Positions 4,521 through 36,973 of a stretch of DNA of 64,000 nt are shown here, piece after piece. A model generated the notes under the pieces. It saw only the letters and a program-made list of their open reading frames with translations, was not told where the DNA came from and searched no databases. How positions within the stretch are numbered: position 1 is the stretch's first letter; every line of letters starts with the position of its first letter. The DNA is taken from the NCBI RefSeq assembly GCF_022045235.1, contig NW_027266271.1, forward strand, positions 26,970,001-27,034,000, given 5' to 3'. This stretch comes from Haliotis cracherodii (lineage: Eukaryota). Position numbers and translations under genes: made by a program.

Positions 4521-4564
4521 GTATTCAGGAATCCATCACGTCAGCCATGTTGATGGTCAAACCG

Positions 4565-4790: not shown

Positions 4791-4799
4791 TCTAGATCA

Positions 4800-5570
4800 C
4801 GTCCACATAGTTTAATATGTTATAAAGCTTGCATCTGGTTCCAGTGGCTATACTAGTGTTTGGCTTGCTTGGGAAAAGGTGACGTTGTCGGATAGGTGGT
4901 GTTTGTCGAAGGATGTTGGTCAAGAGTTGGCAGCTAATTTTGTTGGAAGATTTCAAGCAGTTTGTGCGTTCTGAGATTAAGACTTATTTGGATGAACAGA
5001 AGGTGGGTCAGTAACAAATATCTGCAACCTTGACAGATAATTCCTCGGTTACTCACAGGAGTAACCTTAGGAAGGATCAGCTAGGGTAATTGTACAGTTA
5101 AGACTTATTTGGGTAATTCAGGTCAGAATAGGTCAGCTACTTCTGTTCAGGCGTGTTCGATTACTATCAATTCAGGTAGTTCGTTCCCTAGGAAGTCAGA
5201 TTCCTTAGTTGGTTTGAAACAGGATTCAGGTTTGTCGTCAGGTGTTGTATGTAAATATTGACACAAGGCAGGTCATCTGATTTCAACGTGTCGTATACTC
5301 AAAGCCAAATGATGATCACAAACCACTCCCCATGCTTTTGTCCCAGTGTAATCTTATGTCATCAACACTGAGGATGAGTATGCGAGTGTCTCCTGCTGTT
5401 AGGGAGTAATTAACCTTTATTTCAAAAGGTCTGGCATTATTTCAACTGGATAAATCCACATTATGGCCAATTACTTTTCTGAGGGACACAGGGACACTCT
5501 ATTCGTGACTTTGGAGGGCGTCCTCTAGTTTGGGTAGTGGTTTCAATAGAGGGGATTGGAGGAGTAACTG
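4800..5570 (+). mobile_element. Decayed Gypsy (Gmr1-like) gag/protease remnant; also ~13290-14050 and ~45372-46140
   Basis: DRWCLSK...QLILLEDFKQFVRSEIKTYLDEQKV (SCAN-like capsid), zinc knuckle CKY*HKAGHLISTC and protease motif ITFLRDTG, all with stops or frameshifts. Confidence 0.75.
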
Positions 5571-6133
5571 GTGTGTTAGATGTTTGTGTCAATTACTACT
5601 TACGGGATGAAATAAAATCTTAGAAGCAAGGTTTTACCACCGTAGTTTATCAGTACTGTGAATGAGTTTTCCATTCAGAAAACAACGCGATCTTAGCACT
5701 AAGATGATTGTAACGCCCATACCTTGGCATAGACTTACCACAGTCGTAGCGCTAAGGTTCTTTGGAACAACGGCACCCAGGTCTCTTATTACCGCTGGGC
5801 CTCATGTTCTGTTGGAAGCTTGTTCAAAGGATAAGGGTCATTGCGCTTATTATAGGGAATACGTTACTTCAGTCAACATTATTAAGACCCGAGACTGTCC
5901 TCCTTCAGTTTTGTCCTCTATACCATGTGACATTTACCTCACAGTTAACGAGAAACGTTTCCTAAAAACATGAAACGCGGTGTGATTCACAGAATGCAAT
6001 TACCTTCAGCTTGAAATGTTTGGAAATGCGAACACCGCCGCCAACGCTCCATAGTTCTTTTTCGTCTGCGTTTTCCTAAGTATCGTCTGCTTCATTTGAG
6101 ACGAAGACGCGGAGGGTAGCGGATGATGCGATC

Positions 6134-6386
6134 ATGTCTCAAACTGTAACAGTTTCAATTTTACTATTAACCTGTTTGGGCTTTGTTTTGCAAGCACTGG
6201 CAGTGGACAGTGACAAATGTGTGCAAAGCTTTCTCAACGACGCCGGCGACCTTAACCCTGAGCGTTTCCAAGGTTACTGGTACGCCAGGTACTCTTACCT
6301 CCCGTACCGTCCAGGGTTCAGAGCCATTGATACTCAGTCCATCTATGTGTACATGCCAGGATCCAGGCGGTGGAACATAGCAGCGG
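6134..6386 (+). pseudogene. Lipocalin exon 1, orphan copy (its exon 2 is missing because the duplicate is truncated)
   Basis: Signal peptide plus lipocalin SCR1 motif FQGYWY, donor G|GTGAGT at 6386/6387. No exon 2 occurs before the junction at 8562. Confidence 0.8.
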
Positions 6387-7219
6387 GTGAGTAGGCTTGA
6401 CGCAGTAGTATTCAAAACTGGATACTTACGCTGACAGATCCATCACACGACATCTGTGGAAGTGACACTGTTTTCCTGAGAAGTAGCATGGGGTTTAATG
6501 TTCAAATCCAACAAAAAAGTTTCTGTTTTAAACTTATTTCTCTTATAAAAAATTTTCATTAGTTTTCAGTTTAAGCATTTTGTTATTTTCTCACGAGTTG
6601 ATTTCAAGATGATCATCAAGGTAATCATCTAAATTGATAAATAGTAGTTGTTAATAATTATGAAGAATAATCTGGTATAATAAATAATATATATCATCCT
6701 CTTGTCTTGATGACATATCAAATATCAAAAGACACGTGTGGGATCGACTGTATACCAACCCTCTCGGCAACACGTTTTGCAGATAATCAATAAGGATTTG
6801 GGTTAAATGACGCTTTTGGCAGTATTTCAGTCATATGAAGGGATGCACGCTTATTGTTTGGGGAAAAGACCAAAGTGGCGCAGATGGCGAAGGTCGACCT
6901 CTTTGCTTAACTCAACGAACACGAGTGTTGTATGCTGACGTGTATGCAGCTATCGATATATACACTTGAGTTTTAAATGAGCTTGGATGTTATCAAATAA
7001 GAAAAGTATGTTCTTTTACAAATATTGCTTTTGTACAAGATCAAACATGATGCATGATCCCTGTTCTATTCTGTATATACATACTAAAGATGAAAGGTAA
7101 ATAACAAAGCTGAATAAGACCATTTCCGTTGGTACACGTCGTCGTTTGAACCTCATGGTGGTGATCACAATGCAAACTGCACCTTGGCTGCATTGAACGG
7201 TGACGTGTGATGAAGTGAA

Positions 7220-7460
7220 GTGGGGCTTAACGTCGCACTCATATCGAGACGAGGGTACACAGGTGTGTTCCTGCTTGTAGTAGTGCTGTTTCTGTAGTGT
7301 TAACCAACCATGCCCAGCTTAACATTAATACCCAACCCAGACACATTATACTGACTCCGAGCTGACCACTCCTTTCTATCCCTTTAATATCAAGTACCTT
7401 CTGTTAATGTCGTTTAGTATCAGGCGGCCAGGGGGTCGAACCACCGATCTTCCGGGCTTA
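7220..7460 (-). mobile_element. Degenerate tRNA-SINE related to family D (intronic; repeated in copies 2 and 3)
   Basis: B box GGTTCGACCCC and GCTCGGAGTCAGTATA segment shared with 25591-25941; ends CGTTAAGCCCCACTTCACTTCA. Confidence 0.55.
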
Positions 7461-7474
7461 AATGATTTGTGTGT

Positions 7475-7882
7475 GTTTGTTTGTTTGTTGTTTAACACCA
7501 CACGCTATATGACAACGGTCTGAAAATAATCGAGTCTAAACCAGACAATCCAGTGATTGACCTCGATTCACGCAATTGGGATACGATGACATGCATCAAC
7601 CAAGTCAGCGAGCCTGACCACCCGATCCCGTTAGTCGCCTCTCACGACAAGCATATTCGCCTTTTACGTATAGAAACAAATACGATTTGTAACTGGTAGG
7701 ATTAGGAAAATGTTCACCGGATCGGGTGGTCGGGCTTGGTTGATGCATGTCATCTCAACCTAATTGCGTAAATCATTACTCATGATGTCAATCACTGGAT
7801 TGCCTGGTCCAACGTCATATATTTACAGGCTGTAATATAGCTGGGATATGGCTCTGTGCAGAGTCAAACATCAAACAAACAA
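7475..7882. mobile_element. Two partial SINE family C copies in inverted orientation (7475-7655 minus, 7717-7882 plus); repeated in copies 2 and 3
   Basis: Body CGGGTGGTCAGGCTCGCTGACTTGGTTGATGCATGTCATC and (CAAA)n tails. Confidence 0.75.
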
Positions 7883-7934
7883 TTAGTATGCCTTTAAGAG
7901 TTAATACTCAGCAAGGAAAACATTATTATATGTA

Positions 7935-8562
7935 TTCATCATGGACATATAGGATATCGTATGCTTTAAAAAAGCAATACATTCATCATGGACATATGGG
8001 ATACCGTATGCTTTAAAATAGCAATACATTCATCATGGACATATGGGATATTGTATGCTTTAAAAAAGCAGTACATTCATCATGGACATATGGAATATCG
8101 TATACTTTAAAATAGCAATACATTCATCGTGGAAATATGGGATATTGTATACTTTAATATAGCAATACATTCATCGTGGACATATAGGATATCGTATACT
8201 TTAAAATAGCAATATATTCATCGTGGACATATGGGATATCGTATACTGTAATATAGTAATACATTCATCATGGACATATGGGATATCGTATGCTTTAAAA
8301 AAGCAATACATTCATCATGGACATATGGGATATCGTATGCTTTGATATGGCAATTCATTCATCATGGACATATGGGATTTCGTATGCTTTAAAACAGCAA
8401 TACATTCATCATGGACATATGGGATATTGTATACTTTAAAATAGCAATACATTCATCATGGACATATGGGATTTCGTATGCTTTAAAATAGCAATACATT
8501 CATCATTGACATATGGGATATCGTATGCTTTAAAATAGCAATTTATTCATCGTGGACATATG
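7935..8562. repeat. 47-bp intronic minisatellite, ~13 units
   Basis: Unit ATACATTCATCATGGACATATGGGATATCGTATGCTTTAAAATAGCA. Confidence 0.95.
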
Positions 8563-11500
8563 AAGTAATGTCCACATGAAGTAATACACATTTTATCGTT
8601 ACCTGTTTCTCCTCCCCGCATACCAGATATTCCGATTCAAGTTATCAGTTTCGATGTGGATATAGTTTTACAGAAAGAAATAGCTGTACATATCACGGTA
8701 GTTGTAGGATCTTTGAAATGAAATACAGTAATGTTGAATATGAAATATAAGATACTTAGGCGAATAGTCGCAAAAAAAACAACGAAAAACGATGAGTGGT
8801 TTATTTCATGATAAAATATTGTTCTTTCATGACGTCATTTCTGGAGATTTGAACACGCTCGCAACTTGATGACGTCTAAATTGGACGACGTTATAGTTTT
8901 AGAGGGAAGTGCCTAGTGAGTTGTTCCCCATAGATGTAGCTGGGCTAAGCAGATATACGATATGGTCGAAACGATCGCATCCAAAAGTGAGCGAGATACG
9001 ACAATCGCTATTGGGAGAAAAGGTGCAGATAATGACGTGAAAATTGTGAGAGTACAAAAACCCCTGTACATAAAATCGACATGCCCGCATTGCCGAGGTC
9101 GGATTGTAATCAGAGAGTCACGTAAGAAAAAAAAGACTCGTGGACGTTGTTCATCGGACACCAAAACACAGTGTTTTACTGTACGATAAACAACTCCCAC
9201 TCGTCGTTTATTCCGTAATTAAAATGACACTCGGCAGATTCTGCCACGTTCCCCTTGGAATACGCTCATTGTCTCTCATATTAATATCATTAATGAGCAC
9301 GGTTTCAACCTCTATATATAAGTAGTCCCTCGGATGTGATAGGAACATAGATTAAACCCTCAATTAATTCTGAAAATTCTCTCAACAAGGTACTTCTTTA
9401 AACAAAGTAAATACTATTTACTGTGCAGGGAGATTTCACTCATCCACATCTCATGCTCACATCAATGAAGTCAATGCAAACATAAAAATACAGATAACAA
9501 ACATACCTCAGCCACCGTCAGTGCCACACATTCATCCTTATTCCAAATTGTTAAGATAACCGTCACCAAAATATACAGCCTATACATTTCCAATCGTGAC
9601 CTCAAAGACGCTGCAAGCTCAGTTGCGAAATACTAGTAGAGTAGGACAAATATTGATGCAATGCATATCTAACACATTGACCAAACAATGCCATAGTATT
9701 CGCCTTTGTTATATGCTTGCGCACAGCCGGTAACTAATCATGAAACACACCAAGTGGCTCTTTTGCAACAGCTCAGTGAACTCACGCTATAATGATACGA
9801 CACGAATTGTTCTCCTGTAAGTTGAAGTTTGTTTGGGATTCTGCTGCGTCACAGGAATGCTGAATGTTTGCACGAGATTGTGCACTGCTATCTTCCGTCA
9901 GTCAATAACACAAGATTGTCACCCTTTTTGAAAAAAAGAAAACCATAAATAGGTGGGAAGAGTAGGGCAGAATCCACGGGCAGTCATTCACCATAGTCAC
10001 ATGTAGCGTATACCAGGGCTAAGTAGGCCAGCTGGGTGCAATCAGGACCGCTTCTCACTTTGGCTCATGCACAACAGTAACTGTTTGTCGAGCCCTGACC
10101 TTATTTTGTATCCACAAGATCATTCCTCACTGCAGAGGTGACACATGTTTTGGCTCATAAGTTGCCTTTGCTAATTTCAAGGCCGAGATTTAAGCATTTA
10201 TAAATTTCTGTAGTATAATGGTCCAAATGTCTCCCCTTGAAAACTGCTAACGAGCATGCCAACAACATGTACGACTTCCTGAACGGTGGCTTTGGTTTTA
10301 GTCTGAAGCTCTGAGCAGACATTATAAACAGCTAATGCCTTCCTCTCTCAGTACGTAGAACTGTCATGTCAGTGAATTCAGACTCAATCCCAGAAATTCA
10401 ATATCTTGAGATGGAATACATTTTGACTATCAGAGTGGATAATGAACCCAAGCTCTTGCAACTGTGAAGTTGCCACAGACACATTGCCAGAGCATTCCTT
10501 AGTAAAGCAGTAGGGAACTACTGTGCAACCTCTATTGTACTGCTGAAGCTTGTAAATCCATACTGTGTCCATACTGGATGTTTTAATTCTTACTGGATGT
10601 TAAACTCTTAAATATTTAAAATGAGCCTGTAAGAGTTATCCCTCTGTTTCCTTACAAATAGGGAGGATACACATTCTCCCTCACACAGAACAGCCTCGAC
10701 TGTTTCCTCTTTGTCAAGATGTTTCAGTGTCTATGGCCCCTTCCTCACTTGCAAGGGTGCGGTGGGGTAGCTTTGTGGTTAAAGTGTTCGCTCGTCATGC
10801 CGAAGGCCCTGGTTCGATTCCCATGGATACAATGTGCGAAGCCCATTTCTGGTGTCCCCCCGCCGTGATATTGCTGGAATATTGCTGAAAACCATACTCA
10901 CTCACTCACTCACTCACTCACTCCTCGCCCGCAGAAACATTAATGTCTCTAGGTACAGATCAAACCAAATCAGACTCTTGCCTTAAGCCTGTATGACAAC
11001 CAGATGCTGTATCTAATTCTGTGGCAATCCGATGTGATAGCCTGCCAGCTATAAGTGACATCTCTAGTTCTGCCTGCATATAAATCCGAATGAGGGAGAT
11101 CGTTTGAAACCCTAAAACCACCAGTAATAGAAAACTAAGTCTGCTAACGAATTCCCAAAAAGCTTTCCTAGCTTTCCTAGCCCTGTTGCTCGAAGTCGTA
11201 GCTTTCCCCGATTCCGCCATATTTGAATTGCGTGGGCCATGTCCACTTAGTCCTAGAATCGCGTGCGGAACCTCTTTGTTTCTCATTCCTGCCATCCTTA
11301 CGGCTGTCACCGGCCGACGTGTCCCTAATGTTATCAGCATGCAGTAAGTGATCACAACAATCCGTAGGAAAACAAAGATAACGGCTATCAATATCCCGCA
11401 TTAAGCCAGTGTCTACATCACTGTGAATAAAGCCAGTGCTCACCACCTTGTGCTCTAATAAAGTTAACTTCCGTCAGTGTGGAAGTTCAACTGACTGACC

Positions 11501-14500
11501 ATTGCGCACTGACGGAAGATAGCACTTCTCTAAAAAAACAGAAGCATTGTGACGTAGCAGAGTTGGCGAAGTTCCGCACAAAAGTGTCGAAGGTGTGACG
11601 CCAAATTCTTCTTTAGGAAGTGTTTCAAATTTATTGGATATCTCAAGTTGTGTCACCCATTCTAAACGGAAACAAAGATACCGTTTAACATATAGGCAAA
11701 TATTAGTTTTAAATCTGGCTGTTGATTAGGTATTAATAGGGATGTATATTACAAGGCTATCATATCTGATCTCAAAAGTTAGGTATTGTCTATGGTTATA
11801 CATTGTAATTATGTTTGAGTATTCTAAAAAAAGAAGCTTATATGATGGGGTGATTTTCGGATGAAAAATAATATAATTGAATTTCCTTGACAAAAGTTTG
11901 ATTAGATTTATATTTGTACTAATTCCCTTATGTTGAAAACTTCTGAATCTCTGGTGGTGTGTAGGGTTGATTTGGATCGGCCATTCAGGAACATAGAGTT
12001 GAGGCCTGCCTCGTCTATTGTTTCGAAATGGCCCAAGATGGCGTCACGTCCGTTTCCTCCAGAAGTAGTTTGTTTTGCATATTCTTGAGGCTGAGGGGGA
12101 GGACTCATATATTTTGGAGAAGATTATTGATTCGCGAGATAATATAATAAAATTTAAACGTAGATCTACGTTGTAGGCTATTTGATCAGCTGGTTGAAGA
12201 CAGGCCTCAATATATAAACAAAACTCGGGTTATCATGGTAATCAGAGGTTTTCTTTTTGTCCAAACTGCAAGGCGTTTATATTTTAATTTGCTGTAGTCG
12301 CCCTATCCAAGTTGAATTTCTCAACATCAATTATTGTTGTTTCTTCCTTTATTGGCATTGTTGGAGGAGGGAGGAGTTTTTTGTTGTTGTGGTTGGTAGG
12401 CAAAGCAATGATGAAGGCGTTCTTTTGGGAGAGTGGCCGGGGTGGCCCTGGAAAGGGCTGTTGGAAACAAACTGGACAAGGCTTGTCTCTGTTTTACATT
12501 ACTTTCCTTGATCTCGATACTAGATAATAATACGGTCCACTCCAACAGTCGGGTACGTCAATTCCGGTGTATCGAGACGACATGGTTGATCTCTCATTAA
12601 GTGCTAGGACTGTGACGGTGTGCTCTGCTTCGCTCTTTTTTTATAGAAGCGGCACTGGAACCCTGCTACCTGATTGGTCGAAAACGTAGCGCGCTGATTG
12701 GTCCGTTCCGGCGCCTGATCTGAGCCTCGGTTTTTCCAACCGGACAGACCCTTGTGATGGGTCAGTCTTACGGGGATGTACAGTCAGTCTTAGAGGGGTG
12801 TACTGTGACTCTAAAGGAGTGTACAGTCAGTCTTAATGGGTGTACAGTCAGTCTTTAGAGGTGTACAGTCAGCCTTACATGGGTGTACAGTCAGCCTTAC
12901 AGGGATGTACAGTCAGTCTTATAGGGGTGTACAGTCACTCTAAAGGGGTGTACAGACAGTCTTAAGGGTGTACAGTCAGTCTTACAAGATGTACAGTCAG
13001 TCTTATAGGGGTATTCAGGAATCCATCACGTCAGCCATGTTGATGGTCAAACCGCGTCTTTCTGTCTGTGGCCGTTGCCTTGTTCATTCCACCTTCCACA
13101 AGTTCAATCGGGTATCCACGGGATTGTAGATATAATTTCAGTTCTGCAAGTCGTATGTTCCTTGTAGACATATTTGACAAAATCATGCGGATGGAATGCT
13201 TCTTTTTGTATGACTCGGGTGACGAGATGAAAGATGTAGATACTGTTTAGTATATGTAGGCTTAAAAGTATAGATCTGTCTCTAGATCACGTCCACATAG
13301 TTTAATATGTTATAAAGCTTGCATCTGGTTCCAGTGGCTATACTAGTGTTTGGCTTGCTTGGGAAAAGGTGACGTTGACGGATAGGTGGTGTTTGTCGAA
13401 GGATGTTGGTCAAGAGTTGGCAGCTAATTTTGTTGGAAGATTTCAAGCAGTTTGTGCGTTCTGAGATTAAGACTTATTTGGATGAACAGAAGGTGGGTCA
13501 GTAACAAATATCTGCAACCTTGACAGATAATTCCTCGGTTACTCACAGGAGTAACTTTAGGAAGGATCAGCTAGGGTAATTGTACAGTTAAGACTTATTT
13601 GGGTAATTCAGGTCAGAATAGGTCAGCTACTTCAGGCGTGTTCGATTACTATCAATTCAGGTAGTTCGTTCCCAAGGAAGTCAGATTCCTTAGTTGGTTT
13701 GAAACAGGATTCAGGTTTGTCGTCAGGTGTTGTATGTAAATATTGACACAAGGCAGGTCATCTGATTTCAACGTGTCGTATACTCAAAGCCAAATGATGA
13801 TCACAAACCACTCCCCGTGCTTTTGTCCCAGTGTAATCTTATGTCATCAACACTGAGGATGAGTATGCGAGTGTCTCCTGCTGTTAGGGAGTAATTAACC
13901 TTTATTTCAAAAGGTCTGGCATTATTTCAACTGGATAAATCCACATTATGGCCAATTACTTTTCTGAGGGACACAGGGACACTCTATTCGTGACTTTGGA
14001 GGGCGTCCTCTAGTTTGGGTAGTGGTTTCAATAGAGGGGATTGGAGGAGTAACTGGTGTGTTAGATGTTTGTGTCAATTACTACTTACGGGATGAAATAA
14101 AATCTTAGAAGCAAGGTTTTACCACCGTAGTTTATCAGTACTGTGAATGAGTTTTCCATTCAGAAAACAACGCGATCTTAGCACTAAGATGATTGTAACG
14201 CCCATACCTTGACATAGACTTACCACAGTCGTAGCGCTAAGGTTGTTTTGAACAACGGCACCCAGGTCTCTTATTACCGCTGGGCCTCATGTTCTGTTGG
14301 AAGCTTGTTCAAAGGATAAGGGTCATTGCGCTTATTATAGGGAATACGTTACTTTAGTCAACAATATTAAGACCCGAGACTGTCCTCCTTCAGTTTTGTC
14401 CTCTATACCATGTGACATTTACCTCACAGTTAACGAGAAACGTTTCCTAAAAACATGAAACGCGGTGTGATTCACAGAATGCAATTACCTTCAGCTTGAA

Positions 14501-14618
14501 ATGTTTGGAAATGCGAACACCGCCGCCAACGCTCCATAGTTCTTTTTCGTCTGCGTTTTCCTAAGTATCGTCTGCTTCATTTGAGACGAAGACGCGGAGG
14601 GTAGCGGATGATGCGATC

Positions 14619-14871
14619 ATGTCTCAAACTGTAACAGTTTCAATTTTACTATTAACCTGTTTGGGCTTTGTTTTGCAAGCACTGGCAGTGGACAGTGACA
14701 AATGTGTGCAAAGCTTTCTCAACGACGCCGGCGACCTTAACCTTGAGCGTTTCCAAGGTTACTGGTACGCCAGGTACTCTTACCTCCCGTACCGTCCAGG
14801 GTTCAGAGCCATTGATACTCAGTCCATCTATGTGTACATGCCAGGATCCAGGCGGTGGAACATAGCAGCGG
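14619..14871 (+). CDS. Secreted lipocalin (ApoD-like), copy 2, exon 1
   Basis: Hydrophobic signal peptide, DLNLERFQGYWY (SCR1 GxW), phase-1 donor G|GTGAGT that joins in frame to 17658. Confidence 0.9.
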
Positions 14872-16476
14872 GTGAGTAGGCTTGACGCAGTAGTATTCAA
14901 AACTGGATACTTACACTGACAGATCCATCACACGACATCTGTGGAGGTGACACTGTTTTCCTGAGAAGTAGCATGGGGTTTAATGTTCAAATCCAACAAA
15001 AAAGTTTCTGTTTTAAACTTATTTCTCTTATAAAACATTTTCATTAGTTTTCAGTTTAAGCATTTTGTTATTTTCTCACGAGTTGATTTCAAGATGGTCA
15101 TCAAGGTAATCATCTAAATTGATAAATAGTAGATGTTAATAATTATGAAGAATAATCTGGTATAACAAATACATTATCATCCTCTTGTCTTGATGACATA
15201 TCAAATATCAAAAGACACGTGTGGGATCGACTGTATACCAACCCTCTGGGCAACACGTTTTGCTTATAATCAATAAGGATTTGGGTTAAAAGACGCTTTT
15301 GGCAGTATTTCAGTCATATGAAGGGATGCACGCTTATTGTTTGGGGAAAAAACCAAAGTGGCGCAGATGGCGAAGGTCGACCGCTTTGCTTAACTCAACG
15401 AACACGAGTGTTGTATGCTGACGTGTATGCAGCTATCGATATGTACACTTGAGTTTTAAATGAGCTTGGATGTTATCAAATAAGAAAAGTATGTTCTTTT
15501 ACAAATATTGCTTTTGTACAAGATCAAAACATGATGCATGATCCCTGTTCTATTCTGTATATACATACTAAAGATGAAAGGTAAATAACAAAGCTGAATA
15601 AGACCTTTTCCGATGGTACACGTCGTCGTTTGAACCTCATGGTGGTGATCACAATGCCAACTGCACCTTGGCTGCATTGAACGGTGACGTGTGATGAAGT
15701 GAAGTGGGGCTTAACGTCGCACTCATATCGAGACGAGGGTCCACGGGTGTGTTGCTGCTTGTAGTAGTGCTGTTTCTGTAGTGTTAACCAACCATGCCCA
15801 GCTTAACATTAATACCCAACCCAGACACATTATACTGACTCCGAGCTGACCACTCCTTTCTTTCCCTTTAATATCAAGTACCTTCTGTTAATGTCGTTTA
15901 GTATCAGGCGGCCAGGGGGTCGAACCACCGATCTTCCGGGCTTAAATGATTTGTGTTTGTTTGTTTGTTTGTTGTTTAACACCACACTCTACATGACAAC
16001 GGTCTGAAAATAATCGAGTCTAAACCAGACAATCCAGTGATTGACCTCGATTCACGCAATTGGGATACGATGACATGCATCAACCAAGTCAGTGATCCTG
16101 ACCACCCGATCCCGTTAGTCGCCTCTCACGACAAGCATATTCGCCTTTTACGTATAGAAACAAATACGATTTGTAACTGGTAGGATTAGAAAAATGTTCA
16201 CCTTTGAAAAAATGGATGATTTAGAGACGATAGTAGAGACGATAGTGTAACATGTACCGTTCCGGATCGGGTGGTCGGGCATGGTTGATGCATGTCATCT
16301 CAACCTAATTGCGTAAATCATTACTCATGATGTCAATCACTGGATTGCCTGGTCCAACGTCATATATTTACAGGCCGTGACATAGCTGGGAGATGGCTCT
16401 GTGCAGAGTCAAACATCAGACAAACAATTAGTATGCCTTTAATAGTTAATACTCAACAAGGAAAACATTATTATAT

Positions 16477-17278
16477 GTATTCATCATGGACATATGGGAT
16501 ATCGTATGCTTTAAAAAAGCAATACATTCATCATGGACATATGGGATACCGTATGCTTTAAAATAGCAATACATTCATCATGGACATATGGGATATTGTA
16601 TGCTTTAAAATAGCAATACATTCATCGTGGAAATATGGGATATCGTATACTTTAATATAGCAATACATTCATCGTGGACATATGGGATATCATATACTTT
16701 AAAACAGCAATTCATTCATCGTGGACATATGGGATATCGTATACTGTAATATAGTAATACATTCATCATGGACATATGGGATTTCGTATGCTTTAAAATA
16801 GTAATACATTCATCATGGACATATGGGATATCGTATGCTTTGATATGGCAATTCATTCATCATGGACATATGGGATTTCGTATGCTTTAAAACAGCAATA
16901 CATTCATCATGGACATATGGGATATCGTATGCTTTAATATAGCAATACATTCATCATGGACATATGGGATATCGTATGCTTTAAAATAGAAATACATTCA
17001 TCATGGACATATGGGATATCGTATGCTTTAATATAGCAATACATTCAAAATGGACATATGGGAAATCATAAGCTTTAAAACAGCAATACATTCATCATGG
17101 ACATATGGGATATCGTATGCTTTAATATAGCAATACATTCATCATGGACATATGGGATATCGTATACTTTAATATAGCAATACATTCATCGTGGACATGG
17201 GATATCGTATGCTTTAAAATAGCAATACATTCATCATGGACATATGGGATATCGTATGCTTTAAAATAGCAATACATA
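16477..17278. repeat. 47-bp intronic minisatellite, ~17 units
   Basis: Same unit as 7935-8562. Confidence 0.95.
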
Positions 17279-18348: not shown

Positions 18349-19288
18349 TCCACCTTGATGAAACATACAAGAAATGTGTAAGTGATCAAATGGAGATGAA
18401 CCTCCGAGGCTGACACCAGTCTGCCAAAACTAGAGGTCAATAGTGTGAGCATCAATCCACGCCGTCGTCGTACACAACCCAAGGTCGATGATGAGGCATG
18501 TTCAGTCTGATCACCCATGATAAATACCACAACCAAATGAATCCGATCTTACCTTTATTTTGGACCTGCAAAAACGCAAAGCGGCGATTCTACTCCGTTG
18601 TGCTTATATCCTCATGGAGGATTCCGGGGCAAAGTGGGTCCCTCACATCTCAAGATCCGACGAAAGAGGATACTAGGGTGGTCAGAATCGATGACCTGCT
18701 GATAGCACGTCATTTTGTCTCGCGGGTTGTTGTTCATGTTTTGAGTCACTGGTTTTCCTGGTCCAAACTCTATCACACTACACAGGCCGATCCGACTATA
18801 CTGGAATATTGTTATAACCATCCAATCATCAGTAGACAAACTCCTTCGCAGTGCCCCCAGGTGGCGCTCGTGCCTCGCTCCCTTTACGTGCTAGCAAGAG
18901 ATGTACGAGTCTTTGTTTGTTGTTTAACGCAGTACCTAACAGTATTATGACGGCGGTCTGTAAATAATCGAGTCTGGCCCAGACAATCCATCCACTGACA
19001 TCAAAAGCATCGACCTACGTAACTGGGATACAAGTCATGCACCAATAAAGTTGGTCAATGGTCAACATGGGTTGGGCACCTGGATCTTCACGAGGCAGGT
19101 ACGAGCGACAATTGCACCGCTGTGTATGTGCTGCTGCGATGTGGGACTAAGGCCTGATCTGTCCAGGAAATATTGAAGTTCACAGACTAAGATGTTTTTT
19201 ATTTCGTCAGAATGTAGGCCAGCGGTCAAATACACAACATGCAATTGTGAAGAGAATATATGGATGTCAACTTCGTTATAATGAGGAA

Positions 19289-19328
19289 CACAACGTTTCG
19301 GAGTATATGCTTACTCCTTCATCAGGTC
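19289..19328 (-). ncRNA. Minimal hammerhead ribozyme-like motif (Penelope-type), copy 2
   Basis: CTGATGA + stem GGAGTA/TACTCC + GAAACGTT. Stem I is weakened by a 7-nt deletion relative to copy 3. Confidence 0.5.
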
Positions 19329-19593
19329 CAACATGGGATTGCCTAAAAGTCTGGCCAAGAAAAGTCGGGCCGGGCCGGGCCGGGCCGGGCCGGGCCGGGC
19401 CAGCGGGTAATACTAAAAATGGATTGCAGAATAATAAAACGAAACATGCATATCTAGGTAGATCTCAAATGTCCACAAACGTATAGTTTTGCTCATTTAA
19501 TTGAGTTTGAATCAAAATGCATCTTCAACAATGTAATAAACTGATAATTATGACTACGTACCGTCAGTCCTCGTAGAAAGTCAGTATCTTGAC

Positions 19594-20948
19594 GTTCGTT
19601 CGTTCGTTCTTTCGGGGATTTAACGTGCGCTTTCCGCATGTAATAAATTACATTTAGCGTATCTCGCACACGGGGAAGTACTTATACTAAATAGGAAAAA
19701 AAAGCGTAATGAATAAATAAGAAGTGCGACCCCCAAAAAATGTAAATTAAGTAAACCTAAAAATTTAATCTAGGGGGTTGGGTTTGGCTGGGTGGGGTGG
19801 GGGTTGTAAATGAAAAATAATAATGTGAAAAGGTGGGCTTGGGGGGGACCGGGGGGGGGGGGGGGGGGGGGCGGGGGTGGGTGTGTGGTCAAGCGTGGAA
19901 GGGAACGGCGTTGGCTGGAGAGCTGGTGTGGAGAAGGAAGTTACTGCTTCATCCCAGCCAGGGGCCTCCTGGCTAGGTCGAGCTCTCCTAGAGGAAGAGC
20001 TCGGAACAGTGCGGTGGTGAGGCGGGCGGCGGCGTTGGTGATGAAGAGCGGGCTGACTGGGAGATCACAGTCAACCAGGAACTCCGAGAGATCCTGGTAG
20101 CTGTGGATCTCGTGCTCAACCTTTCTTCACCACAGTACTGCACCAGCACCAAGGGTGGGCGTGGGCGGTTGCTTGGGTAAATATTGCCGCTCTCATTCTG
20201 GTAGCAGGGGTTAGGGTGGACCTTGTGCTGCTCCAGGATGAGGTCTGCCTCCTGTACAAGGTGGGCACGGACATCTACCTCAACATCTTGTACCGGAACC
20301 GGGTCGGTTTGGACTTGGCTGGTGTTGAGGGAGGGGCCTGGTGTTATGGCGGTCTGCGTTTCCGTGGTCTTGCAGGTTGGAGGTGTTGGGAGGGGGTGGG
20401 GGGTGGGGGGGGGGGGGGGGGGGGGAGGGGGGGGGGGAGAGTCAGGGGAGAAGACACTTTTCTTCTTTCTCTTTTTCCTCCCCTGGCCAGTCCCTACCGG
20501 CGTGCGAAAGGGCTCCTCCCCTCTTGATTCGAGAGGAGCGAGTTCCAGTGCAGCTGTCGGGGACGGAGGGGTGGTGGGAAGGCTCTCCTGGATCTCCATG
20601 GGGGCGATTGGTGGAGACTTCTTCACTGTAGGCGGCCTGGCCTTCTGTACCGGGCGTGGTGCAGCAGGGGTAGGGACCGGGGTCCTCATCTCCTTAGGCT
20701 TGGTGTTGGTCGGAGCCTTGACCAGAGGCCTTTTCCTTTGGCCTAGGTCAAAGGAGATGGAGAGGGTGGATGAGTTGGACTTGTACGAAGTCCGGAGGGA
20801 GAAGTCCCCAACCCTGTAAGCCAGCAAGGGCTCCAGGATGGCAACTAGCTCCCTAGGTAGCGATAGAGCGATATCTCTCATGGTAGAGCGTGGGTTGCGA
20901 GCGAGGAAGGACACGTCTGCACGGGGCGAGTGTCCAAGCCGAGATGTG
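19594..20948 (-). mobile_element. Non-autonomous single-ORF retroposon (no RT) with (GAAC)n tail
   Basis: 7-bp TSD TCTTGAC (19587-19593 / 20949-20955), 3' end CGTTAAATCCCCGAAA(GAAC)4, GC-rich body in an AT-rich context. Confidence 0.7.
19988..20881 (-). CDS. Pro-rich ORF of the retroposon (ORF1-like, unknown function); likely frameshifted near 20125
   Basis: ATG at 20881: MRDIALSLPRELVAILEPLL..., basic NLS-like RKKRKKK, poly-Pro. An alternative frame after ~20125 reads KVEHEIHSYQDLSEFLVDCDLPVSPLFITNAAARLTTALF. Confidence 0.55.
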   Translation of the reverse strand: MRDIALSLPRELVAILEPLLAYRVGDFSLRTSYKSNSSTLSISFDLGQRKRPLVKAPTNTKPKEMRTPVPTPAAPRPVQKARPPTVKKSPPIAPMEIQESLPTTPPSPTAALELAPLESRGEEPFRTPVGTGQGRKKRKKKSVFSPDSPPPPPPPPPPPTPHPLPTPPTCKTTETQTAITPGPSLNTSQVQTDPVPVQDVEVDVRAHLVQEADLILEQHKVHPNPCYQNESGNIYPSNRPRPPLVLVQYCGEERLSTRSTATRISRSSWLTVISQSARSSSPTPPPASPPHCSELFL

Positions 20949-21616
20949 TCTTGACTGTGTGTTTTCTTGGATGAGAAAGTTTCTCACCGACCTTAGCGTG
21001 GAGGTGCGTGATGTCCTGGGCAGGAAATCAAAGTGTTTTGACTGCTATTCTTTCATTAATTAACGAGTTAGGCATCCCTAATTAACGTGTACTAATTCAT
21101 GTTAAACCAACACAGGATGTTTACTGGAAGTGGATATTCGCTAATGTCATAGGGCTGACACGACACGTGTTAGTAACTGTCCTAGCACTTCTAAAGTTAC
21201 TGAACATTCTTTACACCTAAAGACTAGTATTATATCTACCTATATGCCACTTTAGTGTCTCATATTGCGGTAGTTAAACAAAACACGGTGCTCAAAGTGA
21301 AGCCCTTTTCCCTCTACATTATCAACATAGGCTCTATCAAAGGTGTTTGAATTGTGTTGGGTCCGACTTGGCCCGGGCTGTCAAAATTAACTTTAAACAC
21401 ATAGATGTATCAAGAAATGTGTTTACTTCTATAGATTGTTGTTGTTGCATAAGGTGTTTAAAGGGTCGCCTTCTGCCTAGGCAATTTCGGCTGACATGTC
21501 CCTCTTTGGGACTCCTGTGTGTGAGTAGGGTACACATATCTATTGTGAGTTTGGTGTTCACATAATTTCTGTTTTTGCATTGATATGATTTCTATTTTCT
21601 AACATTGATATGATTT

Positions 21617-23235
21617 CTTTCTATCCTTGACTGCTCTGTTTATATACGTTCGAGTAGCTGTCCATCTCTCTCTCTGAAATAGAGTAAGTTTGGCCTTCGC
21701 TATTGCATCTCTTGGCTTTAGGAGATCTATGACAGATAGTGGATCTGACTGCAATTCTTGTTTTAATCAAGCCAGGGCTGGGGCATGTTCTTGACATTCT
21801 AGTAACACGTGATCAATGGTTTCAGCCTGATTGCAAGCTGAACAAACCTTGTCATAGTGCTTTTTGTGACCGAGTCGAGGCGTGAGATAGCAACTTCAAT
21901 TTTCCTTTCTTTTGAGTATGAGTTTGGCTTTTGTTGGACCTTGGGTTGAATTTTGTATAGCCATCTACCGATCTTACTTGCGTCCCATTGGGCTTGCCAT
22001 CTTTCTGCTATGGAGGCTTTGATTTTGCTTTTTATCTCTAGTTTACTAAAGGGAATAGGCTGTATATCCGCTTTGTCTAGAGCTAGCTTCGCCAGTGAGT
22101 CTACTTTTTTCATTTCCATGAATATCTATGTGAGAGGGGATCCAAAACAGCTCCACCTGTTGCCCTTGGTCCGATAGTTTTGTATATTCGTATAGAATAT
22201 TGTTGACTGTGTTTGGCCTGGAGTTTCTGCCACTGATGGCCTGAAGTGCACTTAGCGAGTCTGATAGGACGACTGCCTTTGCTTCCGGAAGTTCCGGTAT
22301 GAGTTTGTGTGCATGATGAATTGCCTCCAATTCAGCCGTGAATACTGACTGACCATCAGGCAAGCGAACTGAATGTGCTTGGGGTTTGGAGCTGTGGATA
22401 TGGATCCCGTAACCAGCACTGTTGTTGATAGGATTCTTGGATCCATCAGTGTATATATGGGCCCAGCTCTCCCAGGTAGTTTGAATTTTAGTGATAGCTA
22501 CTGATCGTAGTAGGGTTGGGTTTTCTTTTTTAGTGACTTCTGATGTTAAAGCAGTGTCAACTTTGGGAGTTTTTGAAGTCCACGGAGGGTGTAACCCTTT
22601 GTAGTGACTTTCTGGAGGCTGAATGTCATCACAATTGTGACTTCGAATGAGTTCACGTACTAATATCCCAGATGGCTTTAGTGAGGGATTGTTTCGAGCT
22701 AGGGCTTAATCTCGAGCGTTTTTGTCTTGCCATATCTTTTTAACCAAAGGGTTTGATGTTCTTCCCCAGAACGATGATATTGCCTGCTCTCTTCTTAGTT
22801 TCAATGGGAGTTCTCCCGTTTCTACTTGTAGTGCTTCTAGTGAGGTGCCTGTTGCGCTTGTGGCCAGCATTAGGGCTTTGTATTGTATTCTGTCTAGGCG
22901 CCTCAAGACAGTATTTGATGCTGAATGAAAAGCCTCACAACCATAGTCAATTTTTTATCTGATAAGAGATTTGTAGAGGTCCAGCTGAGTGTCCCTCGAT
23001 GTGCCCCAAGATGTGCCTGAAATAGCCCGTAATACGTTCAGGTCTTTTTGACATCTGTTTTCCACATATTCTATATGTTTGCGCCAAGTGAGGCGTTGAT
23101 CAAGGATCGCCCCAAGAACTATTGCAGATTTTTCGAATTTGATAGGTTTGCCTTTTATGGAGGTATCATAGCATCTTTCCCCCGGCGTTTGAATAGAACT
23201 CAACATTTTTTCACTTGAAAGGGTGAATCCCCATT
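21617..23235 (-). mobile_element. 5'-truncated, frameshifted I-group (I/Nimb-like) LINE: RT C-terminus + RNase H
   Basis: LGAILDQRLTWRKHI...SGTSWG; SLEALQVETGELPL; SVFTAELEAI; SDSLSALQAI; WIPSHIDIHGNE; WQAQWD. Confidence 0.9.
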
Positions 23236-24143: not shown

Positions 24144-24198
24144 TCTTCTACCATACAGTGACTATAAACCTGTAATTAGATGTTATATCAAAAACCTA

Positions 24199-25114
24199 AT
24201 GCAGAAGAAGTGGGACACTCAAGTGGGTATAAATAAATTACATGCAATAAAAGCAAATATCGGTTACACCTACTTGGGCTGTCAGTCCAGATTTGAAGAG
24301 GTCATTATGCGATGATGTCGTATTGGCCATTCACGTTATACACATGAGTATTTGTTGGAAGGTGAAGATCCTCCATTCTGTGTCCCTTGTGATGAAAGAA
24401 TCACAGTCAAGCATGTCCTGCTTGACTGTATCGATTTTTCTAGCACAAGGGATAATTATTTCCAGGTTTCATCCATACAGGATCTTTTTAATGTAAGTTC
24501 TCGTTTAATTCTTGGATTTTTAAAAGATATAGACTTGCTTGATAAATTTTGATATGTATTGTTGTAAAAAGTATATTTTCTAATTAGGAAGAATGAATTA
24601 ATAATTGTGATTGTTAATGGCTGTACCTTCAAAGGGGGTTGAAGTAACGTAAAATAATTGTCCCCCTGAGAGGGTTCATAAGTCCTATTTCATTCAAAGT
24701 ATTTTTCATTTTCCTAGGTTTTAATCGCAGAATACTTGTTTGTTTTTAAATGCTTTGGCTTAAACTTTCTAACAATCACCAGTAGCCAGAGGGATGGTGT
24801 AAATCCTGCTGGGATAACACGCAGGAAGCAGATGTACCGTAAGTCCCCATGGTCCCTTGTGTGGTGGCTTTGGTTGCTGGTGATCACTAGCCAATTTCTA
24901 TAATGTATTGTACTGAAAAGTCAAAATGTTATAGTTACTTACTAGTTTTATATGTATAGCTGTGATAATCTAGCTCTTTTACTGTCCATTGACGACAGAT
25001 TTTATATATTTATAGTTATATTTATGTATTATTACTGTACAACTTCATTTAGTCACGATATGGCTGAAATATTGCCGATGTGACTATAAATGTTAACTCA
25101 CTCACTCACTCACT
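24199..25114 (+). mobile_element. 3' fragment of an I/Nimb-like LINE (CCHC finger + 3'UTR + (ACTC)n tail)
   Basis: MQKKWDTQVGINKL...RIGHSRYTH...PPFCVPCDERITVKHVLLDC, then 3'UTR ending GCTGAAATATTGCCGATGTGACTATAAA...(ACTC)n. Confidence 0.88.
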
Positions 25115-25590: not shown

Positions 25591-25941
25591 GACCGCCCCC
25601 GTGGTCTAGTGGTAGCGCGTCCGCCCGGGGAGCGGAAGTCCCGGGGTTCGAACCCCGACCGCGTCATACCAAAAGACGTTAAAAGATGGTACTTGTTGTT
25701 ATCCTGTCTGGCGCTCGGCATTAAGGGGCTAAAACAAGGACTCGTCGGCTCGGAGTCAGTATACTGTGTCTTAGTGGGGTATTCATGTTCAACTGCGGCA
25801 TGGTATCTCAGTGGGTTAGCTCTATAAATCGTCATCAGTCCGGATTAGTACAAGCAGCCACATACACACGTGCATGCACGTCGCAATATAATTATAAGTA
25901 CAATAATTTTTGACGCGACGTTAAACCCCATTCACCTCACC
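25591..25941 (+). mobile_element. tRNA-derived SINE family D (Meta/MESC-domain-like); degenerate copy at ~60840-61100
   Basis: A box TGGTCTAGTGG, B box GGTTCGAACCCC, core CATACCAAAAGACGTTAAAAGATGGTAC...GGCGCTCGGCATTAAGGG, flanking repeat TCCACCGAC. Confidence 0.8.
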
Positions 25942-27829: not shown

Positions 27830-29133
27830 ACGCGATTATGCTACGAAGCCCATGAAGGTGAAACCATCAAGTACATCTCCATCAACCCCCTGTGGACACG
27901 TTGTTTGAACTGAAAGGACTGATCCAATGTCGTGTCCTACCTCCGAAACGACTCTACCATCCACTACTGCCTTACAGATCGGGTGACAAACTGCTCTGTC
28001 CTTTGTGCCGCACGTGTGCCGATACCCGGTCAGACTCCCCCTGCCAGCACATGGACGAAGAGAGGTCATGGGTGGGTACGTACGCCACCATAGAACTTCA
28101 GGAAGCCGTGAAGAAGTATGACTACCAGGTGCTTCAGATCTACGACGTTTGGCATTTTGACACCTTTGCACAGCATGACCCCGATACCCAGCAAGTGGGA
28201 CTCTTTGACACTTACATCGATCGGCATTTCAAGGAGAAGCTCGAAGCCAGCGGATACCCCGAGGGATGTACGGATCACGACGCTTACATCCAGGAAATCT
28301 ACGACAAAGAAGGCATTGTGTTGGACAAGGATCGCATCGAAAAAAATCCAGGACGTCCCACGATTGCCAAGATGCAACTGAATTCGCTCTGGGGCAAGTT
28401 TGGACAACGGCTTGACTACAGTCAGAACATCTATATGAACGATCCTGTACAGTACTTTCCCTTGTGGAGGGATGAACGCAATACCATCGAGGATGTCACC
28501 GTTGTCAACGAACACATGGTGGAAGTGACCTATACCCAGAAGAAAGAATACCAAACCCCTCATTCTCATTTCAACGTCGCCATCGCTGCTTGGGTCACCG
28601 CCCAAGCACGTCTCAAGCTGTACGAGACCTTTGCCCTGGTGGGTCGCAGGGCCTTGTACTTTGACACGGACAGCGTCATTTACATTCATCGACCACACGA
28701 CGTGAATCCAGAGCTGGGCCATTCGTTGGGCGAATTTACAGATGAACTGGACGGAAACACCATCAAGACGTTTGTGTCGGGAGGCCCCAAAAACTATGGC
28801 TACGAGTTAATGAACCCCAGACCCGATGGAACGCGCACGACCTGCAAAGTGCGAGGGTTCACTTTGAATTACCGAAACCAACAACATCTCAACTTTGACA
28901 CCATGAAAGGACTGATACTGGGACAACAGCCTGGGAAAGAGGGGGAGGAAATCAGTTTGGATTACCCTCATCAGATCATTCGAAAAGACCCTCGGCACGT
29001 AGATGCTCTTGTGACCCGACCCTCCCGAAAAGACTATCGTACCGTGTACGACAAGCGACGTCTCGTCTACGACGAAACCACAGGGCTGCCTGTAGACACG
29101 CTCCCCTTTGGGTACAGAGACGACTTTCTATAA
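27830..29133 (+). pseudogene. Protein-primed family B DNA polymerase (pPolB), C-terminal polymerase portion
   Basis: GLIQCRVLPP..LYHPLLP, LCRTC, motif B KMQLNSLWGKFGQ, motif C YFDTDS, GGPKNY, KVRGFTLN, YDKR, TLPFGY. The N-terminal/exonuclease part and motif A (DxxSLYP) are absent. Confidence 0.93.
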
Positions 29134-29492: not shown

Positions 29493-30957
29493 ATGTTCCG
29501 ACTACTACTACCGTATGAGAACAATGGCCACTACCGCATCATCATCAAACAGAAGAAGAAGAAGGAGAAGGGGGACAAGGACGAAGACGTTTTTAATAGC
29601 GAGCATTTCCGTCGTGCCATGGCGGACATCCTGGGGGTACAGCTAGTTCTACATTGGGAGATGATGAGAACAAGTCCCTTGTACAAAGCTTCCCATGACT
29701 GCATGCATGAGAAGTGAAAGAGTGTTGTGGACACATTTCTGCCTCCGGAGTATGGCATCTGCATCCCCAGCATGGAATTCTACGTGGAAAAGTCAACCCC
29801 AACACCTGAAGCAGCAGCACTCACAGCATCCATACTCAAAGCAGCCAAAAAAGCAGCAGCACCACACGTCGCAGCACTTACCGCAGTGGTAGCGGAGGGA
29901 ACGTTAAAAGAAACAGACGTACTCACCTCAGCACTCATTGCAGCGTCAGCAGCGGCAGAAGCAGCACCCATACTAACAACAACACCCTCAGAAGCAGTGA
30001 AAGCAGCACAACAACTCGACTCAGCACTATGGACAGCGATACTAGCATCAGCCGCAGCAACACCTGCAGCCATAGAAGCAGCAGCAGTAGCACTCGTTGA
30101 AATAGTGACCGCACATGCACCCATGCTGCAGCAGTACTCATCGCAGACAACACCATCAACAACACCTATAGCAGCAGCAGAAGCAGCCACCACACAGGAA
30201 GAAGAAGATGCAGCTGCAGACGCAGCAACAACACCCTCACTAAAAGTATTCATCAATGCGCTACAGATGGCGCAATGCGCGGCAGGTGTGAGGGCATCGA
30301 CGGGGACACCTCGAGAAGCAGCAGCAACAAGAAAATTCGCCTCAGCACTATCCTGGGCGGCAGCAACAGCCACAGCCGCCACACCTACAGCAGTAGAAGC
30401 AGCAACATCTGCACTCGTCGCCGTAGTAACAGGAGTAACTTCAGAGCAGTCATCATCACCACCACCTTCACCACCATCACCGATGGACACCTCAGATGCT
30501 GCAGCATCCACACCAAAACCAGTGGCAGTCACCACAGCACCCTCATCAACAGCACCCACACAAAAACCAGTGGCAGCAGCAATGGTAGCAGCAGTGGCAC
30601 CAACAGTGGCAGACACCACCCCCCACAGCCATAGAAGCACCAGTAGCAACACCCTCACCAACAGAACTCTTTGATGCACTTCACGCAGCAGCAGAAGCAA
30701 CCGCAGCAGCAACACCACCCTCACCAGCAGCAGCAGCACCAGAACTCATCTCAGCACTATACAGAGCGGCAGTAGCAGCCGCAGCAGCAACACCTTCACC
30801 AACAGAAGCACCAGCCACAGCAGCACTCGTTGCAACATTGAGCAGGTACCTGTGTGATGACGATGACAAAGGTTGTCATCCACTTTTTCGCATTATTAGC
30901 ATTATTTCACTTTGTTTGAAGGTATCTAAGTTGTTGTTCATTATTAAACAGGGATAA
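29493..30957 (+). pseudogene. Ala/Thr/Pro-rich Maverick cargo ORF (~487 aa reconstructed; one in-frame TGA at 29715, +1 frameshift in the C-run 30619-30624)
   Basis: ORFs 29493-29717 and 29727-30674 share one frame. Removing one C continues the same Ala-rich repeat style to TAA 30957. Confidence 0.6.
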
Positions 30958-32189: not shown

Positions 32190-33044
32190 GACTTTTAACT
32201 TAGACAAACGACTGTCATCGTTGGCTACAATACACGATCGCCTTGTGGAACGAAACCTTACACCTCAAAGTTGACAAACACATCACCATACCCGATGACA
32301 TGATTTGTGACATGTTGGTGCAAGATCCTTCGCCGATATGACGTCAACCTAGCAACCAAGTGGCAGAGTCGTCGACTGTGTTTGATAACTTTGATAAGCT
32401 CGTCTCAGTGAACTATCATCTCCACATGCCATCGCCACACACCAAAACAAAACAAAACAAAGAACTCGACTCTCCTCCCGCCTTCCTCCCTCCCTGAATC
32501 CCTCCTCCCTCCCTCCTCCTCCTCCTCCTCCTCCTCCTCCCTTCCCAGGGGCGGTCGGGTAGCCTAGTGGTTAAAGCGTTCGCTCGTCACGCCGAAGACC
32601 CGGGTTCGATTCCCGACATGGGTACAATCTTTGAAGCCGATTTCTGGTGTCCCCCGCCGTGATATTGCTGGAATATTGCTAAAAGCGGCGTGAAACCATA
32701 CTCACTCACTCACTCACTCCTCCCTTCCCTTCCGCCGCCGTCTATTTTTAGAACAAAAAAAAAAAAAAGATTTTTGACACGCTTATTTCAACCTTTGATC
32801 CGTTCACCTTTTACGACCGCCTCTCCGGGTTTTCCCTCCTCCCCGGAAACGGATGTGACGTCCTCTTGAAGCTGCGCACGCCACCAGAAACGGATGTGCC
32901 GCCATCTTGGATGCACACGCACCTCCCATCATGCCCTGCGCGCATGCGCAGTCACGTGACCAAACCGAAACCGGAAGTGACGTCACAAACCCTCTCGACC
33001 AATCAGAAGCCAGGATCGGTCCCAAACTACTGCACACAACTACT
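32190..33044 (-). repeat. Maverick right terminal inverted repeat (interrupted by a SINE)
   Basis: Reverse complement of 27162-27829. Confidence 0.93.
32547..32716 (+). mobile_element. SINE family A inserted in the right TIR only
   Basis: TSD CTCCTCCCTTCCC (32534-32546 / 32717-32729). Absent from the left TIR. Confidence 0.92.
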
Positions 33045-35430: not shown

Positions 35431-36051
35431 TATGTTAATTATTAAAAAACTTTGTCACTGACGGTCATGATGTTCACACTACTAGCGGAGGGATAAGTTG
35501 GTATGCGGTCTACGGTGAATCCTACAGTAACACTACTCAATTGCTACTTCATTTTGTGACGATTACCAAATAAGCCTCAAGTCCAATGCTTCCTTTGTAG
35601 CCTTTGTTATGAGCTGATGATGACTGAACCTCACACATCAAACTACACAATGGTATTAAGAGGGTTGCTGGTATGTTATTACATTATATGTGTAACTCGG
35701 GCCATCGCGGGTTTTTAAGGATATAGTCCATCTGACGCTAGTATGAAGTAACTGTTATTACAGACTAACATCTTAATAAAAAAAAGTGTTGTATATCAAA
35801 CAACATTTTAAGCAATTCCCATTTTACGGTAATCCACCAATTGCTTACGTACGGAAAACGAAAGCGAGTGGCCACTGATTTCACTGTATAAACATACATA
35901 AACTGGCCTTCCTTAGGGATTCCTTACATATGTTTGTGTTTCTCGTCGCCAAGGGTTGCCGGGGAGGGGGATGAGTGGCGGATGAGCAAAAAATAAAAAA
36001 ACCCAAGTAAAATAGGAGGTTCCCTATGGCCGAAGGTGGTCAAAGCTAACA

Positions 36052-36973
36052 GTGAGTGAGTGAGTGAGTTAAATTTTAAGTCACATGGGCAATATTTCAG
36101 CCATATCGTGACTAGCAATAGTTAAACACAATATATATATATTGAAAACTTGCATAAAAACCTGTCAACGAAGGACAGTAAAATTACTAGATTCATCACA
36201 GAAAAAGATATAAAACTGGTACGGAATTATAAAAGAGAAGAGCACTATACATAACGATACAAGATAAAAAGAGGCTATAGATCGCCAGGAGCTTATAGGT
36301 AGACCACCATGCTATGGTCCATGGGGACTTACAGTACTTTTGCTACCTGCATGGACCTCAGCCGGATTTACATCACTCTTCAGCTGTTGTCGATTATTGA
36401 TAAAGTTAGCATACATTAAAATAACACAGATGCTACGATTAAAAGTGTGGTACAAAGAAATATACTATGAAAGACGTGGTCTTACATATCCTCTCAGGGG
36501 GACAATAATTTTACACTACTTCAACCCCCTTTGAGGATACAGCCACTAACAATCTCAGTTATTAATTTTATTCAACCAATTTTAAAACAGACAAATTATA
36601 TACAGTAGATATTATTCAAAATGTATGTAACAATTCAATTTCCTTTAAAAAAACGATGATTAAATGATAACTAAGATTAAAAAGATCCTTGAAGAATGAA
36701 ACTTTGAAATAGTTATCCCTTGTGATGGCAAAATCAATGCAGTCAAGCAGGACATGCTTGACCTTGATTCTCTCATCACGAGGGATACAAAATGGAGGAT
36801 CCTCACCCTTTAACAAATACTCATGTGTATACCTGCTATGGCCAATACGACATCGTCGTATTATGACCTCTTCAAATCTGGACTGACAACCCAAGTAGGT
36901 GTAACCGATACTTGGTTTAATTTGATGTAATCTATTGATACCTACTTGGGTGTCCCACTTCTTTTGCATCAGA
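36052..36973 (-). mobile_element. 3' fragment of the same I/Nimb-like LINE family as 24199-25114
   Basis: LMQKKWDTQVGINRL...RCRIGHSRYTH...KHVLLDC, (ACTC)n tail, 15-bp TSD TGGTCAAAGCTAACA. Confidence 0.9.

Follow-up and report, generated by a model that had tools for sequence, protein, structure and literature searches.

Non-autonomous LINE derivatives that code for an ORF1 protein have been named in three lineages, HeT-A (Jockey), HAL1 (L1) and Ag-Sponge (CR1), each from a different LINE clade (PMC5786205), with HAL1 also being described in PMC5753468 and PMC3627910 (both in part). The non-LTR elements of gastropods are poorly characterised (PMC11203168, in part). In molluscs, Nimb LINEs have been given as the partners of Meta and V SINEs (PMC11481361, in part), and the ORF1s of the wider I clade are of the RRM plus CCHC type (PMC4120745, in part).

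The element described here lies on the minus strand of a 64-kb stretch of Haliotis cracherodii DNA, the whole of which (64,000 nucleotides) is referred to below as the window. It had been predicted to be a protein-coding retroposon with no reverse transcriptase (RT). We consider it probable, with some reserve, that it is a decayed copy from a family of multicopy abalone retroposons. The family has a single gene of ~300 codons, no RT and likely an internal promoter, and is likely copied by an I/Nimb-type LINE enzyme recognising the 3' hairpin and tail.

An insertion within a high-copy repeat

The original prediction was of a 1355-bp unit within a 7-bp target-site duplication. The two copies of TCTTGAC do stand at 19587-19593 and 20949-20955 with 1355 bp between them, but the duplication is better described as 10 bp with one mismatch (GTATCTTGAC at 19584-93, GTGTCTTGAC at 20946-55), leaving an element of 1352 bp (19594-20945). 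Such a 10-mer, with up to one mismatch, occurs at 3 of the 64,000 plus-strand positions, and two of the three are the flanks themselves. Part of the stretch is contained in 17 public sequencing runs with four organism codes, none of which holds more than one third of its words. No RNA run is listed among them, and run X12 may be one. Contigs from four public runs were aligned to 19200-21400. The joint 19579->20946 was seen in contigs of all four (1, 1, 3 and 2 contigs, respectively), and the loose end of one contig is an empty target carrying a single GTGTCTTGAC, which fixes the limits of the element and shortens the 5' UTR, predicted at ~67 nt, to 64 nt.

The unit is a true insertion, and its flanking duplication is not the chance repeat that the prediction had named within an outcome against itself. 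The flanks are far deeper than the element in the four runs, so the element sits inside another high-copy repeat, and the empty targets could stem from copies of this host repeat elsewhere instead of the orthologous locus. Two contig pieces, 3 and 19, end at 20946 and continue into other sequence, in agreement with that boundary; the shared 5' and 3' ends of other copies are visible piecemeal, via contig fragments only. No terminal inverted repeats or long terminal repeats are present in the element, which ends 3' in a simple-repeat tail, and its layout is one of 64 nt of 5' UTR, a coding span of 941 bp, and 347 nt of 3' UTR and tail (Table 1).

Table 1. Features of the element and its flanks (positions in the window)
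Feature	Position	Strand	Remarks
Target-site duplication, 5' side of element, GTGTCTTGAC	20946..20955		Equals empty target; joint 19579->20946
Target-site duplication, 3' side, GTATCTTGAC, one mismatch	19584..19593		Last 7 bp are the duplication first predicted
5' UTR, 64 nt, starts (C)ATCTC	20882..20945	-	AGACGTG from +28 (20918); likely Inr + DPE internal Pol II promoter
N-terminal domain, ~50 aa	20732..20881	-	Helix and beta-hairpin predicted; best conserved region in the family
Basic Pro-rich linker with NLS-like RKKRKKK	20300..20731	-	Poly-C expansion 20388-20437, missing from P0003
C-terminal domain, ~114 aa	19941..20299	-	Predicted helix / three strands / three helices; one-base frameshift near 20117-20120
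3' UTR body, C-rich then U-rich	19676..19940	-	Without ORF2 remnant
Terminal hairpin CGTGTGCG...CGCACG, closing just 5' of TTAAATCCCC	19608..19675	-	Likely RT recognition signal
(GAAC)n microsatellite tail	19594..19608	-	Sequence
Host repeat, high-copy, left part	19409..19593		Run contigs
Host repeat, high-copy, right part	20946..21200		Run contigs

The host repeat follows a (CGGGC)7 array, and a short palindrome, AGTCA...TGACT, spans the insertion point. A unit of ~8.2-8.5 kb occurs three times at 94-98% identity (1-8630, 8630-16809 and 40722-48898), each holding two tandem arrays, one of 47 bp and one of 21 bp. A Polinton-type B-family DNA polymerase remnant (PF03175) is accompanied by an Ala/Thr-rich ORF (27862-29133 and 29718-30674, both on the plus strand), the two being flanked by long inverted repeats (24196-25114 and 36051-36972) that are 76% identical.

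The two ends and the putative LINE partner

The element begins with (C)ATCTC, which we take to be an Inr, and carries AGACG at +28 (AGACGT, counted from A20945). The consensus of the downstream promoter element (DPE) is RGWYG. In jockey, Doc, G, I, F, SART1 and TRAS1 the DPE is located at +28 to +32, with that of L1Tc being CGTG (PMC4748587, in part). This arrangement suggests that the 5' end is full-length and contains an internal Pol II promoter of the Inr + DPE type, for which the support is modest, the DPE motif being short and having been spotted after the fact. Folding of the 5' UTR shows nothing unusual (z 0.03), and Rfam finds no ribozyme in the element. It finds no tRNA-like match there either, its one match of this kind in the window being at 32553-32624, and a tRNA-derived SINE was rejected for want of such a head.

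Long LINEs that are 5'-truncated give a strong excess of depth at the 3' end. Here, summed contig depth in a 5' bin (20828-20901) and a tail bin (19644-19717) came to 1233/2602, 15327/13935 and 17664/8458, which is within about two-fold in all three DNA runs and, although depth is not copy number, is as expected from a short element inserting whole.

At the 3' end, a hairpin, a CGTTAAA-CCC motif and (GAAC)n follow one another in an order resembling that of nearby SINE tails, the tail itself reading CGTTAAATCCCCGAAA(GAAC)4. The terminal hairpin has a predicted energy of -17.5 kcal/mol (z -3.28), equalled by 1 of 200 shuffles in a window chosen once the stem had been seen; in longer windows z is -0.87 and -1.16. 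The motif CGTTAAAHCCC occurs three times in the 64 kb against 0.06 expected, and the other two occurrences end other repeats, one of which folds alike. The nearest structural parallel to the tail is a repeat at 25870-25940 (plus strand), ending in a hairpin (z -2.54), CGTTAAACCCC and (CACCT)-like repeats.

The tail had been predicted to share its style with both the SINEs and the I/Nimb LINEs of the window. The first half of this stands, the motif being common to the window's SINE-type tails, whereas the Nimb-like LINE remnant ends differently, in CCCTTTAAACACC...(CAA)n, and gives no blastn match to the element. This remnant, at 21440-22900 on the minus strand, is what is left, in decayed form, of the 3' portion of an I/Nimb-like LINE; it includes an RNase H domain (Pfam E 1.4e-10), and has been ruled out as the partner by its sequence and its unlike tail. 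No partner LINE was found in the 64-kb window or in viral and metagenome collections. We infer that the tail style belongs to I/Nimb, and this assignment stays at that level since the partner of MetaSINE is left unknown in PMC4824008 (part of the source).

The protein and its relatives

The ORF starts at ATG 20881 and, as it stands in this copy, encodes 297 aa. The predicted Pro-rich ORF is present from that ATG with all of its parts, namely the N-terminal segment (LPRELVAILEPLL...STLSISF), the NLS-like RKKRKKK run, and a C-terminal piece in a second frame. That the C-terminal segment is frameshifted was likewise correctly anticipated: P0003 and P0015 are continuous near 20117-20120 and contigs of all four runs have one extra base there, so the frameshift is private to this copy. 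Two relatives are intact, P0003 (299 aa) and P0015 (313 aa), which puts the intact family protein at about 300 aa, and the C-terminal ends of the full-length relatives (P0003, P0015, P0010 and the second unit of P0018) equal the second-frame end of this copy. The family plan combines an N-domain of ~50 aa with a Pro-rich, basic linker that contains an RKKRK-type run (residues 51-185 of P0003 are 24% Pro and 16% K+R) and with a C-domain of ~114 aa, for which subfamilies are 38-76% identical. The N-domain, the NLS and an acidic motif are retained across all subfamilies.

The predicted lack of RT and endonuclease is borne out. Neither was found in the unit, where the pattern [YF]xDD is absent from all six frames (the longest being 83-318 aa), and no relative found has an RT. 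Pfam gave nothing above cut-off for two pieces of the window and nine relatives, and RRM, CCHC, PHD, esterase and Tnp22 went unmatched in all nine of the relatives scanned. Profile searches of the PDB returned 0 matches for the N-domain and C-domain alike, and the ESM Atlas had no usable match for either. Structure prediction was poor for the full-length protein (AlphaFold pLDDT 51, best Foldseek E 1.3), and for the N-domain gave a helix and hairpin at modest confidence (pLDDT 65-69 over residues 11-50). The C-domain of P0003 was compact in two of five models, the best having pLDDT 70.9 and pTM 0.69. Fold searches with this model reached E 0.66 in the PDB and E 0.37 among viral structures, and a wider search (VIA wide) reached Z 4.8 and rmsd 4.6 over 81 aligned residues, which assigned no fold; such an absence of matches does not prove the fold to be a new one.

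Relatives comprise 14 Haliotis gene models, of which 13 belong to H. rufescens and one to H. cracherodii; they occupy 11 contigs, distinguished by their lengths, as expected of the multicopy retroposon originally proposed; a single-copy processed pseudogene, the other outcome named against the proposal, does not survive them. With residues 1-60 as the query, 7 proteins were recovered among 15 candidates, every one from Haliotis, and a search of 1.84 billion representative proteins returned 8 matches, none bearing an RT; cluster members completed the total. No second copy lies within the 64-kb window, and in protein searches named animals other than abalones yielded no orthologue. In the run contigs, depth over the element amounts to hundreds to thousands, compared with tens in single contigs, as would be compatible with tens to hundreds of copies, although this is not a count.

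Truncation or a frameshift affects most of the annotated relatives. The relatives are listed by NCBI as protein-coding under generic Pro-rich names, and at least 14 abalone gene models ('extensin-like', 'WIPF1-like', 'formin-like', 'proteoglycan 4-like') are wholly or partly copies of the element. The only long relative, P0018, consists of two element ORFs within one gene model. The accessions of P0018 and P0013 (XP_048244442 and XP_048244443) are neighbours, placing three element ORFs of three subfamilies on one 1.9-Mb contig, and clustering or tandem insertion is possible. P0012 (XP_048253951) is an MFS-type transporter gene model ending in ~100 aa of the element protein, by mis-annotation or exonisation, and P0014 was dismissed as a low-complexity match.

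More distant N-domains are those of P0013 (47% identical, H. rufescens) and P0011 (39% identical, the most distant relative), and as the latter is carried on a 706-bp ENA contig, members may exist outside the abalones that have been annotated. Scans for related loci in viral and metagenome contigs were without match. A 19-base tail pattern had 0 viral matches, and its sole metagenome match, L001, was discarded as chance, being inside bacterial genes. The element family is real, multicopy and apparently undescribed; the literature search found no description of it, and Repbase and Dfam lay beyond that search, where an entry is possible.

Origin, mobilisation and described counterparts

Under the favoured reading, that of a retroposon family copied by an I/Nimb-type LINE enzyme, Pol II would transcribe the element from its own Inr + DPE promoter inside the 64-nt 5' UTR, and the mRNA would be translated into the protein. 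An I/Nimb-type ORF2 protein would then bind the tail, and a copy would be inserted in trans by target-primed reverse transcription, leaving the 10-bp duplication. The protein may serve in the manner of an ORF1 product, binding the RNA that encodes it and delivering this RNA to the nucleus or to the partner's ORF2 protein. This role in RNA binding and delivery is the weakest step, and we would as readily doubt it as accept it.

A bolder version is possible, and is put forward tentatively: an independent, long-lived retroposon family, in which selection has maintained an orphan two-domain protein that was never a LINE ORF1, flanked by a promoter and a tail of I/Nimb type, and the protein helps to hijack a LINE ORF2. 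If true, this would be the first protein-coding non-autonomous retroposon that is not 'half of a LINE', and it would have more distant members beyond abalone, such as P0011.

It is unlikely that the ORF is instead the ORF1, of an unclassified 'type V', of an undescribed autonomous LINE still present in abalone, with the 1.35-kb unit being its internal-deletion derivative, either a strict HAL1-like 'half-LINE' or a minor deleted form. HAL1, HeT-A and Ag-Sponge are all of such origin (PMC5786205), unclassified ORF1s exist (PMC4120745, in part), and the promoter spacing and tail are of LINE type. In addition, some contigs (pieces 3, 12 and 19) match the 5' 150-215 bp only and continue into unlike sequence, and an ORF2 encoded as a separate protein would have been missed by protein searches. 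Set against these points, the stretch from stop codon to tail holds no ORF2 remnant, 5' and tail depth are similar, and the ORF1s typical of the I clade carry a CCHC pattern that is absent from all 18 proteins examined. Nor was an RT-fused gene model found: when longer forms were sought with a profile, 8 of 6371 candidates (106-2000 aa) matched, at lengths of 131-299 aa, and none of them was fused to an RT, which is weak evidence.

The element could also be mobile as a non-coding bipartite RNA, formed from a LINE promoter and a LINE tail, with the ORF as a passenger that contributes little or nothing to mobility, an explanation that we regard as improbable. Neutral change was simulated on the codons of the window down to the observed identities, with 400 runs per comparison. 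C-domains that are 38-44% identical are stop-free and nearly gap-free, which the neutral simulation equals in 6 and 7 of 400 runs, a result biased by annotated proteins being open frames by choice. Substitutions in these C-domains are no more conservative than neutral ones, with 166 and 72 of 400 runs reaching the observed BLOSUM mean, and the same is true of the N-domain compared with P0013 (132/400); compared with P0011, N-domain substitutions are conservative (0/400 simulations).

Three of the four domain comparisons thus look neutral, as a passenger would, and many relatives are broken. Furthermore, of 17 positions at which this copy departs from the run contigs (picked among 40 of 383), 13 change an amino acid, although a nonsynonymous excess in a single copy is to be expected after insertion. 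Frames that remain open and colinear at 56-62% amino-acid divergence argue against a passenger, as do the N-domain, NLS and acidic motif common to all subfamilies and the fact that AlphaFold made the C-domain compact in two models of five. Support for a functional protein is thus real but mixed.

Processed retrocopies of an abalone host gene are very improbable, for while annotation of the relatives as protein-coding genes and one ORF with UTRs and a duplication would be compatible, the tail is a microsatellite and not poly(A), a hairpin and SINE-like motif close the 3' end, a promoter motif lies within the unit, several subfamilies have diverged, and no other named animal yielded an orthologue.

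Among described elements, the LP-SINEs of Haliotis, Littorina and oysters resemble this one in being non-autonomous mollusc elements with a LINE-type head of ~70 bp, target-site duplications and tandem-repeat tails; they are short (Hmi_LP, 255 bp), with no ORF described (PMC4758252), in contrast to the 941-bp coding span found here. Their Nimb-17-like head, CCCCCTGCAGGTAGGGTG... (figure S2 of PMC4758252, in part), is unlike that of the element in a by-eye comparison, and on head and coding span an identity with LP-SINEs was rejected. Nimb and I-clade LINEs, together with the Meta and V SINEs, share with the element a stem closing before TAAA, a C run and a short tandem repeat, and the 5' end has DPE spacing like that of Drosophila I. 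It differs from I/Nimb-clade LINEs in having neither a type I ORF1 (RRM + CCHC) nor an ORF2 (APE, RT, RNase H), and in the lack of a sequence match to the window's Nimb-like remnant.

HAL1 proper is set apart by its poly(A) tail, where the element has (GAAC)n, and by the absence of a Tnp22 match here. With HAL1, HeT-A and Ag-Sponge as a group the element shares a single protein, no RT or endonuclease, LINE-type ends and presumed mobilisation in trans (PMC5786205). Belonging to that group would require its protein to descend from a LINE ORF1. It is, unlike them, only 1.35 kb long, and whereas they encode an ORF1 that can be recognised as that of their parent clade, the protein of the element matches no ORF1 domain in Pfam. 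Its ends point to I/Nimb, for which the section of PMC5786205 on such elements names no ORF1-only member. A fourth lineage with I/Nimb-type ends, subfamilies, and a protein outside known families and folds would indicate that the strategy arose again, would add a new ORF1-like architecture, and would offer a small system for testing how a protein encoded in cis serves an RNA that depends on a borrowed RT.
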